DNA of 38,771 nucleotides from Acinetobacter phage TPWB-05. The notes under the pieces were generated by a model. That model did not search any database and was not told the DNA's origin. It saw nothing but the letters and a program-made list of their open reading frames with translations. Both the position numbers and the translations under genes were made by a program. Shown here one piece after another: positions 3,425 to 4,226 of the stretch; positions within the stretch are counted from its first letter, which is position 1; each line of letters begins with the position of its first letter. The stretch lies in the sequence record PQ374146.1; one strand, given 5' to 3'.

Positions 3425-3461
3425 AAAAAAGCCCTAGCTCATTTAAAGCTAAGGCTTGTGT
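3425..3461 (-). terminator. Rho-independent terminator-like hairpin just upstream of the lysis cassette: 9-bp stem GCCCTAGCT/AGCTAAGGC with one mismatch, followed on the minus strand by a U6 tract.
   Basis: Stem 3431-3439 and 3447-3455. A6 at 3425-3430 on the plus strand equals a U-run on the minus transcript. It may also act weakly on the plus strand. Confidence 0.5.
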
Positions 3462-3496
3462 TGTTTGGTTGGGTGAATAAACTTTACTTTTTAAAT

Positions 3497-3525
3497 AAGC
3501 GATATTTTCATTAAAGGGGTATAAT
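3497..3525 (+). promoter_or_regulatory. Promoter for the acetyltransferase moron: perfect -10 TATAAT at 3520-3525, AT-rich upstream region, weak -35.
   Basis: TATAAT lies 30 nt upstream of the ATG at 3555. AAAGAG SD precedes the start. Confidence 0.45.
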
Positions 3526-3554
3526 TAATAAGGGCTTTAAAGAGAATAATATTT

Positions 3555-4226
3555 ATGAAAACTATTTATGGAGTTTATGGTTCAGGTGGCTTCGGTCGAG
3601 AAGTGATGCCACTTGTAATTGAACAATACTATAATGAAAACGTTGATTTTTGCTTTATCGATGATTTCCCAGAATCAAAAATTGCAAATGGTATAACAAT
3701 ATTAACTTTTGATGAATTTAAGAATCTATCGGAAGAAAAGTCTGTAATAGTTGCAGTATCTGATTCATATCTACGAGAAAAATTAGAGAATAAAGTTAAA
3801 TCTGCAAATATCTCGATATTTTCAGTAACCGGTAGCTTTACCAAGATTTTACATAATGTTTCTTTCGATGAAGGTGCAATACTGTGTTCTTTCGTACACC
3901 TTACTTCAAATATAAAAATTGGTAAAAGCTTTCATGCAAATATCTATAGCTATGTGGCTCATGACTGCGTGATTGGGGACTACGTTACTTTTGCACCAGG
4001 TGTAAAATGTAATGGCAATATTCACATCGAAGACCATGCATATATCGGTACGGGTGCTGTGATTAAACAGGGCACTCCCGATCAGCCATTAGTGATTGGT
4101 AAAGGTGCCGTTGTAGGTATGGGCGCAGTAGTTACTAAAAGTGTACCTGCGGGTGCAACCGTAATTGGGAATCCCGCAAGACAACTTGAATTTAAAAAGC
4201 TTAAAATTGTTAACTCGAATACATAA
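3555..4226 (+). CDS. Hexapeptide-repeat sugar N/O-acetyltransferase of the NeuD/PglD/WeeI family. A moron on the strand opposite to the late operon.
   Basis: N-terminal YGVYGSGGFGREV nucleotide-sugar-binding Rossmann-like region plus a C-terminal left-handed beta-helix with hexapeptide repeats. Strongly AT-rich relative to its neighbours. Confidence 0.85.
   Translation: MKTIYGVYGSGGFGREVMPLVIEQYYNENVDFCFIDDFPESKIANGITILTFDEFKNLSEEKSVIVAVSDSYLREKLENKVKSANISIFSVTGSFTKILHNVSFDEGAILCSFVHLTSNIKIGKSFHANIYSYVAHDCVIGDYVTFAPGVKCNGNIHIEDHAYIGTGAVIKQGTPDQPLVIGKGAVVGMGAVVTKSVPAGATVIGNPARQLEFKKLKIVNSNT

Follow-up and report, generated by a model that had tools for sequence, protein, structure and literature searches.

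A solitary, predicted QhbA/WeeI-type N-acetyltransferase gene that moves with a tailspike receptor-binding body among Acinetobacter prophages: a candidate for capsule conversion

The 38,771-nucleotide (nt) stretch of Acinetobacter phage TPWB-05 analyzed here (PQ374146.1), called the window below, is a temperate podovirus-like prophage. Among its genes is one for a predicted sugar-nucleotide N-acetyltransferase, whose protein begins with MKTIYGVYGSGGFGREV. The surrounding block from 2515 to 31999 encodes replication, portal, major head, tail, and internal virion proteins, as well as the terminase, tailspike, holin, and lysozyme. All of these genes lie on the minus strand, and the acetyltransferase open reading frame (ORF) is the sole plus-strand gene within the block; a first-pass annotation, made from the sequence alone, had put it on the strand opposite all surrounding late genes. 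The gene is convergent with the tailspike gene, and the ORF coordinates (Table 1) bear out the 17-nt overlap of the two 3' ends that had been reported. The holin and lysozyme genes lie on the side away from the tailspike. The span given for it earlier begins at 3425, with an upstream hairpin and not with the gene itself; the ORF starts at 3555. The description of the gene as strongly AT-rich was also overstated. The gene has 35.9% GC and the whole window 41.5%, and a markedly low value (30.7%) is confined to the first 300 nt. Chromosomal homologues from Acinetobacter, 32 in number, span 36.0-48.8% GC, and the window gene thus stands at the lower end of their range. In the related phage MD-2021a, the site is empty, with the last tail gene, the hairpin, and the holin gene but no acetyltransferase gene. 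The gene is thus placed like a moron, as proposed earlier, in view of the opposite strand, the empty site, the atypical GC content, and a conserved -10 element and ribosome-binding site, though without a -35 element.

The acetyltransferase gene and the receptor-binding body of the tailspike move together as one block between unrelated phages. The block of about 2.4 kb includes the hairpin, the promoter region, the acetyltransferase gene, and the tailspike body, and it is shared with four other loci at 85-88% nt identity. One is a myovirus-type prophage with baseplate genes (L001, SRR18595354), whose contig has no match to the window outside the block. Another is a podovirus-type prophage of A. 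baumannii (L002, GCA_028441745.1) that differs from the window in both its lysis module and its site of insertion, and its backbone beyond the block and the tailspike is only about 68% identical to the window at the nt level. The remaining two are a metagenome contig (L007, ERZ28436098) and a sequencing-run contig (L008, SRR26673771); these are 2.9-3.5 kb long and hold almost no sequence outside the block. The lysis module varies among the carriers of the cassette. In all four loci, the acetyltransferase gene is convergent with the tail gene, with an overlap of 17 nt in three of them and 8 nt in L007. The edges of the block, as defined by blastn, fall at 3407/3422 and 5769/5867 of the window. 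Only in L002, which has the same type of tailspike anchor, does the match reach 6536. Across the five loci, four unrelated kinds of N-terminal anchor are joined to the common block. When the tailspike body is compared with that of L001, the identity is 88% at the amino acid (aa) level over 555 residues, and the N-termini are unrelated. All five tailspike relatives of at least 85% identity have the acetyltransferase gene. None of the four examined relatives of the body at 46-67% identity, which belong to other phages, has one beside it.

The neighboring tailspike was described earlier as having a depolymerase-like body, and this description agrees with the data. Residues 1-190 match PHROG tail-protein families and, weakly, the N-domain of the T7 tail fiber. 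There is a weak Beta_helix hint; the body has no Pfam family and no match among 50,697 sequenced-phage records. The best fold matches of an AlphaFold model of low confidence (predicted local distance difference test score, pLDDT, 54.8) are Klebsiella K2-2 TSP, KP32gp38, Depo32, Sf6, and the A. baumannii phages Fri1 and phiAB6. In the same model, the C-terminal domain resembles carbohydrate-binding modules. These matches to capsule and O-antigen depolymerases are only indicative.

Across the five alleles, the ratio of nonsynonymous to synonymous divergence (dN/dS) of the acetyltransferase gene is 0.07-0.14; taken separately, the N-domain gives 0.07-0.18 and the beta-helix 0.04-0.06, values that indicate a functional gene under strong purifying selection. 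Synonymous divergence (dS) is 0.06-0.32 in the acetyltransferase gene versus 0.28-0.90 in the tailspike body. Decay into a pseudogene was considered and is rejected by the low dN/dS.

Table 1. Features of the window around the acetyltransferase gene and at the ends of the prophage
Feature	Position	Strand	Remarks
Host aminopeptidase-P gene fragment	110-454		Window left end
Integrase gene	930-2156	+	
Endolysin (lysozyme) gene	2515-3102	-	PF00959, E 2.2e-48
Holin gene	3066-3401	-	PF16083, E 6.9e-18
Shared cassette	3407-5867		About 2.4 kb; 85-88% nt identity to L001, L002, L007, L008
Intrinsic-terminator hairpin	3429-3457	-	12 bp stem, then UUUUUUAUU; -17.9 kcal/mol, z -4.1
Conserved upstream block TTGGGTGAATAAACTTTAC	3469-3487	+	Nearly invariant in five copies
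TATAAT, candidate -10	3520-3525	+	29 nt upstream of ATG; invariant in five cassettes
AAGAGAA, candidate ribosome-binding site	3540-3546	+	Within AAGAGAATAATAT; invariant in five copies
Solitary, predicted QhbA/WeeI/PglD-type sugar-nucleotide N-acetyltransferase gene	3555-4226	+	223 aa; Pfam, NCBIfam, and PDB matches
Tailspike ORF	4210-6390	-	726 aa
Tailspike receptor-binding, depolymerase-like body	4210-5867	-	Residues ~172-726; moves with the acetyltransferase gene
Tailspike N-terminal virion anchor, backbone-specific	5868-6390	-	Outside the mobile block
T7-type large terminase gene	6400-8082	-	
CI-like repressor gene	32329-33015	+	

The protein consists of a PglD_N domain (residues ~1-100) and a left-handed beta-helix (LbH; residues ~101-212). 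Pfam models for PglD_N (PF17836, residues 7-80, E 8.7e-8) and Hexapep (PF00132/PF14602, residues 119-195, E 2e-12) match these two parts. The NeuD/PglB/VioB model TIGR03570 covers residues 7-209 on profile positions 4-202 of 202 and scores 165.9 bits, a narrow margin above the cutoff of 160.8. The earlier assignment to the hexapeptide NeuD/PglD family is therefore sound. The best match in the PDB is A. baumannii WeeI (4m9c, E 1.9e-82, 62% identity), followed by Psychrobacter Pcryo_0637 (7l7y/7l7z; E 4.6e-75 for 7l7y, 56% identity). VioB, the acetyltransferase domain of Neisseria PglB, PerB, and PglD match much more weakly. WeeI reportedly has acetyltransferase activity in vitro that depends on acetyl coenzyme A (acetyl-CoA), as is said to have been found by Morrison and Imperiali in 2013. 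WeeI is the QhbA-type enzyme of KL1 (PMC3628348). Pcryo_0637 N-acetylates uridine diphosphate (UDP)-2-acetamido-4-amino-2,4,6-trideoxy-D-glucose (UDP-QuiNAc4N) with acetyl-CoA in vitro, and its ligand contacts have been described (PMC8040287). QhbA/WeeI, Pcryo_0637 (7l7y-7l82), and C. jejuni PglD all act as N-acetyltransferases on UDP-4-amino-4,6-dideoxy-N-acetylglucosamine and make UDP-diNAc-bacillosamine.

The window protein shares with WeeI and Pcryo_0637 the two-domain fold family, the catalytic residues, and most of the UDP-sugar contacts, with changes at Ser11 and around residue 75 that are described below. The catalytic base is His142 in Pcryo_0637 and His125 in PglD (PMC8040287). His136 and the following Asp137 correspond to His142 and the Asp after it in Pcryo_0637, and neither residue varies within the phage clade or among the 80 chromosomal homologues introduced below. 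The Asp-Asp pair that contacts the ribose (Asp36) and the uracil (Asp37) is kept as Asp40/Asp41 of Pcryo_0637. The sugar contacts Gln172 and Gly173 are equivalent to Gln178 and Gly179, with Gln172 contacting the C-2' acetamido group. The protein is very probably an N-acetyltransferase for a UDP-4-amino-6-deoxy-N-acetylhexosamine, with some uncertainty as to the exact substrate fit, and we hold this class assignment with good confidence. An identity of 56-62% to enzymes with this activity suggests that it would N-acetylate UDP-QuiNAc4N with acetyl-CoA in vitro.

Homologues of the gene normally reside in capsule operons. When 185,579 species were scanned, each represented by a single genome, 80 homologues at no more than 65% identity were returned, mostly from Acinetobacter and Psychrobacter, and their gene neighbors were clustered by family. 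An initiating transferase (Bac_transf) lies immediately upstream in 78 of the 80 loci and a DegT aminotransferase immediately downstream in 75. A 4,6-dehydratase (Polysacc_synt_2) is found within 3.5 kb in 54. This pattern corresponds to the arrangement itrA1-qhbA-qhbB-gdr-galU described for Acinetobacter capsule (K) loci (PMC3628348), and it is explicit in one A. haemolyticus locus. The comparison with capsule-locus acetyltransferases that had been suggested thus yields a WeeI that is 62% identical and chromosomal homologues mostly in capsule-type operons. By contrast with WeeI/QhbA, the window gene is solitary in a prophage. When the window, L001, and L002 were searched by tblastn, no dehydratase, aminotransferase, or initiating phosphoglycosyltransferase partner was found. 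The acetyltransferase gene stands alone, having come out of a capsule operon. A set of about 15 billion proteins holds one cluster of eight sequences that are 94-98% identical to the window protein, and all others reach 68% at most. Four of these relatives are the ones encoded at L001, L002, L007, and L008. No exact match to the acetyltransferase or tailspike sequence of the window turned up in the collection searched. Judged by identity, the window-type acetyltransferases form a long-branch clade of their own.

Two further prophages of Acinetobacter type from IMG/VR (L009 and L010) carry solitary homologues, which share 76-79% identity with chromosomal genes but only about 62% with the window gene. 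They are independent captures, and the phenomenon seems to be general but undescribed. In L009, a window-like tailspike anchor is present, and the solitary WeeI-like gene (6001-6648) comes after the lysis cassette and is followed by a gene for an outer-membrane beta-barrel protein (7494-7940). In L010 (IMG/VR 3300011558_000005), an O-acetyltransferase gene with AT3 and SGNH parts (2657-4585) directly follows the tailspike gene. A solitary WeeI-like N-acetyltransferase gene (6001-6648) lies between its lysis genes and the integrase gene, so that this phage holds two glycan-modifying cargo genes. By eye only, the L010 integrase resembles the window integrase over the first ~65 residues. Beyond the phage clade, the nearest relative of the window protein (P0003, metagenomic, 67-68% identity; L183, 103-1472) is encoded without a downstream aminotransferase gene. 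Its gene is followed by a convergent gene for a 225-aa protein without a family, and P0003 may be another solitary copy.

The signals upstream of the gene are conserved together with it. The first-pass annotation credited the gene with a perfect TATAAT promoter of its own. The TATAAT is indeed present, and all five copies keep it, even L007 and L008, in which the stretch from the upstream block to the TATAAT has diverged. However, no -35-like hexamer occurs at 16-18 nt from it, there is no extended -10, and a promoter scan made no call here. A promoter belonging to the acetyltransferase gene is plausible. The upstream block TTGGGTGAATAAACTTTAC is 31 nt from the -10, too distant for a sigma-70 -35 element; it may be the site of a regulator. 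Closer to the gene, AAGAGAATAAT (from 3540) is invariant in the five copies even where its flanks have diverged.

The hairpin marks the left edge of the cassette, past the tailspike gene and the region antisense to the acetyltransferase gene and just upstream of the holin start. It makes a good minus-strand intrinsic terminator, with a U-run after the stem, and the stem shows compensatory changes in L007 and L008. Because this terminator lies beyond the acetyltransferase gene, the late tailspike transcript should run antisense across the whole gene. Such antisense transcription would silence the acetyltransferase in the lytic phase and leave the gene free in the lysogen. The gene also lies on the same strand as int and the CI-like repressor gene. 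The hairpin and its flank (3408-3480) are 84-87% conserved in the Acinetobacter phages TRS1, Ab105-1phi, AbTJ, BUCTT20, and A785.1 and in Alcaligenes phage Piluca, and the TRS1 hairpin is annotated as a terminator. Since the hairpin coincides with the edge of the block, it may serve as a recombination junction in addition to its role as a terminator.

How a lone acetyltransferase could enter a host pathway, a question raised by the first-pass annotation, finds a concrete answer in K-locus genetics. The A. baumannii enzymes Gdr and QhbB produce UDP-QuiNAc4N, whose 4-amino group is acylated by QhbA (acetyl) or QhbC ((S)-3-hydroxybutanoyl) (PMC9676051). The qhbAB/gdr set, leading to QuiNAc4NAc, is present in 14 of 237 K-locus types (KL), and the qhbCB/gdr set, leading to QuiNAc4NHb, in 22 of 237 (PMC9676051). 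Genes for QuiNAc4NR, the sugar with either acyl group, occur in 72 of 409 KL, always with itrA1, and ItrA1 transfers this sugar as the first one of the K unit (bioRxiv 10.64898/2026.07.20.739706). Since the intermediate is acylated by either QhbA or QhbC, one extra acyltransferase would be sufficient for a different product to be made. The acetyltransferase of the Psychrobacter pathway surpasses the aminotransferase that supplies its substrate about 100-fold in efficiency (PMC8040287). With such a gap, the supply of the intermediate should be the bottleneck, and an enzyme that competes for it should do so effectively.

The mechanism that we propose would run as follows. In a lysogen, the gene would be transcribed from its own promoter while the convergent late operon is silent. 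The cytoplasmic enzyme would convert UDP-QuiNAc4N and acetyl-CoA, its presumed substrate and acyl donor, to UDP-QuiNAc4NAc (UDP-diNAc-bacillosamine). Having lost its operon partners, it would depend on a host K locus that supplies UDP-QuiNAc4N via Gdr and QhbB. There it would compete for the shared soluble intermediate with the acyltransferase of the host, in particular with QhbC, which transfers 3-hydroxybutanoyl. Competition with QhbC is a tentative scenario. The N-acyl group would be shifted on QuiNAc4NR, which as the first K-unit sugar is located at every inter-unit junction. As the gene is inherited in one block with the receptor-binding body, the edited glycan is most likely the one that this tailspike binds or cleaves. 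Such receptor editing would result in superinfection exclusion and in less trapping of released progeny.

A role in surface-glycan conversion had been proposed in the first-pass annotation, and it can be called probable. For capsule in particular, the evidence tips slightly towards such a role, and no support was found for an involvement of lipooligosaccharide (LOS). As a whole, the best explanation of the locus is a lysogenic-conversion gene that alters the capsule receptor of the linked tailspike, to which we give a probability of about one in two. A stronger version, which is possible but doubtful, takes the 2.4-kb block as a matched module that reads and rewrites a receptor. The tailspike body would be specific for one N-acyl form of a bacillosamine K unit, the enzyme would convert that form at the nucleotide-sugar stage, and the pair would be under joint selection and would pass as a unit between Acinetobacter phages of podovirus, myovirus, and other types.

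Several findings weigh against the conversion of the capsule receptor and lend weight to other explanations. With regard to expression, promoter support comes down to the conserved -10. With regard to linkage, the association of the gene with the receptor-binding domain could stem from recombination breakpoints rather than co-selection. The gene may thus be a passenger that was inserted once beside this tailspike lineage and has hitch-hiked between two recombination hot spots, with little or no effect on capsule in most hosts. The cassette edges agree with this, being the anchor junction and a hairpin that is conserved in many Acinetobacter phages. So does the rarity of the clade, with about eight sequences in 15 billion proteins. 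No phage-type copy was found in IMG/VR, the 185,579 species genomes, or JGI metagenomes, where the best identity is 63-65%. The 50,697 sequenced-phage records hold no close homologue either, only NeuD-family genes of about 30% identity in Bacillus, Flavobacterium, and uncultured phages. In addition, prophages with epaAB often reside in hosts without the substrate pathway that these genes need (PMC12053666), and the same may hold for the window gene. A literature search for the K type of the L002 carrier genome gave no result. However, purifying selection is strong on both domains, with dS of up to 0.3-0.5, and the -10 and the ribosome-binding site are conserved. Synonymous sites are more conserved in the acetyltransferase gene than in the adjoining receptor-binding domain, and the two additional independent captures argue that the activity pays. 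We consider a mere passenger unlikely.

About equally unlikely is that an enzyme of the same family catalyzes another reaction, either on a different nucleotide-sugar or with another acyl group such as 3-hydroxybutanoyl, as in QhbC. This would give the conversion a different direction or move it to another glycan. The evidence, which also counts against the proposed conversion, comes from the N-domain. Its identity to the 80 homologues has a median of 35% and a maximum of 44%, and the LbH domain has a median of 82%. Ten positions that are conserved in at least 85% of the chromosomal homologues are replaced in the phage clade, and every one of them falls in the N-domain. They include Ser11, a ribose and alpha-phosphate contact that is Ser in 79 of the 80 homologues and Gly in all five phage alleles, which have Ser at position 10 instead (Ala10Ser). 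Around the phosphate contact at residue 75, IAN is changed to VSD, so that the equivalent residue is Ser and not Ala. Given this divergence, the specificity for the substrate or the nucleotide may differ. Acetyl and hydroxybutanoyl bacillosamine modules also share one locus position (PMC9676051, PMC12904642). On the other hand, the N-domain is the variable part in the chromosomal homologues too, and Asp36, Asp37, His136, Gln172, and Gly173 are all kept. Of the two closest characterized enzymes, WeeI reportedly uses acetyl-CoA. The other, Pcryo_0637, depends on acetyl-CoA (PMC8040287).

A function in the lytic cycle is improbable. The enzyme could drain capsule precursors or undecaprenyl-phosphate flux for phage release, or provide a sugar for virion decoration, and the NeuD-family genes of ~30% identity noted above do occur in some lytic and jumbo phages. 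In the window, however, the gene is antisense to the late tailspike transcript and embedded in its 3' end upstream of the terminator, so that late suppression is expected. It shares the strand of int and the CI-like repressor gene, and the prophage has no partner glycosyltransferase.

Conversion of the capsule receptor by a prophage gene next to a tailspike gene has a precedent in CUS-3 of E. coli K1. There, neuO, which encodes a capsule acetyltransferase of the hexapeptide-repeat superfamily, has the endosialidase tailspike gene on one side and int on the other, close to the lysis/int end of the genome (PMC8653822). The earlier analogy with NeuO and Oac thus stands for genome architecture but not for chemistry. 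NeuO O-acetylates the polysialic acid polymer and is phase-variable via heptanucleotide repeats. The window gene is of the N-acetyltransferase type acting on a nucleotide sugar, has no such repeats (no tandem repeats were found in 3300-4400), and runs toward the tailspike gene, whose end it overlaps. O-acetylation of a finished capsule or LOS polymer by a NeuO/Oac-like enzyme, which the CUS-3-like layout (PMC8653822) and weak hexapeptide matches to WcaB, WcaF, and maltose O-acetyltransferases might suggest, is very unlikely in view of the homology to nucleotide-sugar N-acetyltransferases, which give the best full-length matches (56-62%), the presence of PglD_N, O-acetyltransferase models that score far below their cutoffs, and the lack of any match to the AT3 domain (PF01757, Acyl_transf_3) in the protein.

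Prophage cargo that alters capsule and moves among prophages is also seen in the A. baumannii extra-locus genes atr29/atr30/atr44, wzy1Ph/wzy2Ph, and epaA-epaB (PMC6586298, PMC12053666, PMC13228068). In the parts of these papers considered here, no linkage of the genes to a tailspike receptor-binding domain is reported. EpaA and EpaB remodel the biosynthesis of capsule sugar precursors and need a host pathway (PMC12053666). Unlike the extra-locus genes, the window enzyme would change the N-acyl group on the first K-unit sugar. A QhbA-like gene is not among the ten catalogued extra-locus capsule genes (bioRxiv 10.64898/2026.07.20.739706). A literature search for lysogenic conversion by a prophage N-acetyltransferase with bacillosamine found no paper naming bacillosamine.

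Lysogenic conversion of the glycan receptor of a phage's own tailspike is classical, and the window gene introduces no new principle in this respect. The gtrABC and oac genes of P22/Sf6-type temperate phages follow the same logic and modify the glycan that their own tailspike reads. These systems act at the membrane on lipid-linked or polymerized O-antigen, and the window enzyme is predicted to act on a soluble cytoplasmic UDP-sugar. If so, lysogenic conversion would be possible by a lone enzyme that competes for a nucleotide-sugar intermediate, and a receptor-modifying gene could be packaged with a receptor-binding domain as one exchangeable block. The practical interest lies in capsule typing and phage therapy. 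It depends on the capsule type which phages, depolymerases, and antibodies are effective against Acinetobacter, and capsule prediction draws on the K locus and the ten known extra-locus genes. An active enzyme would change the acyl group of the first K-unit sugar in itrA1/qhbB/gdr hosts (the 72 of 409 KL), and typing would mispredict both capsule structure and susceptibility to phages and depolymerases. If the stronger version with a matched module held, one soluble enzyme would switch capsule type and susceptibility in about one-sixth of A. baumannii K-locus types, invisibly to K-locus typing.

Outside the cassette, the region 930-33015 joins the integrase and the CI-like repressor with a T7-type large terminase, a T7-tail-fiber-like tailspike anchor, and large internal virion proteins, one of which bears a transglycosylase segment. 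The window phage is thus temperate and has structural genes of a T7-like module. Its nucleotide identity is about 69% to the records named 'Acinetobacter phage MD-2021a' and to Alcaligenes phage Piluca. In the analysis, an Acinetobacter-type host is indicated only by such related phages and by the A. baumannii carrier L002. The aminopeptidase-P frame (1-454) has in-frame stops near the window start, and its best identities, to short proteins, are 78-91%. Either the host species is therefore poorly represented in databases or the gene is degraded. No tRNA gene was found in the window, including the integration site. The sequence GTGAGTAATCATAT occurs twice, at 530-543 and 891-904, and repeats containing CATTCG lie at 780-875, just upstream of the integrase gene. 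These copies and repeats may be the attachment (att) core or arm-type integrase-binding sites.

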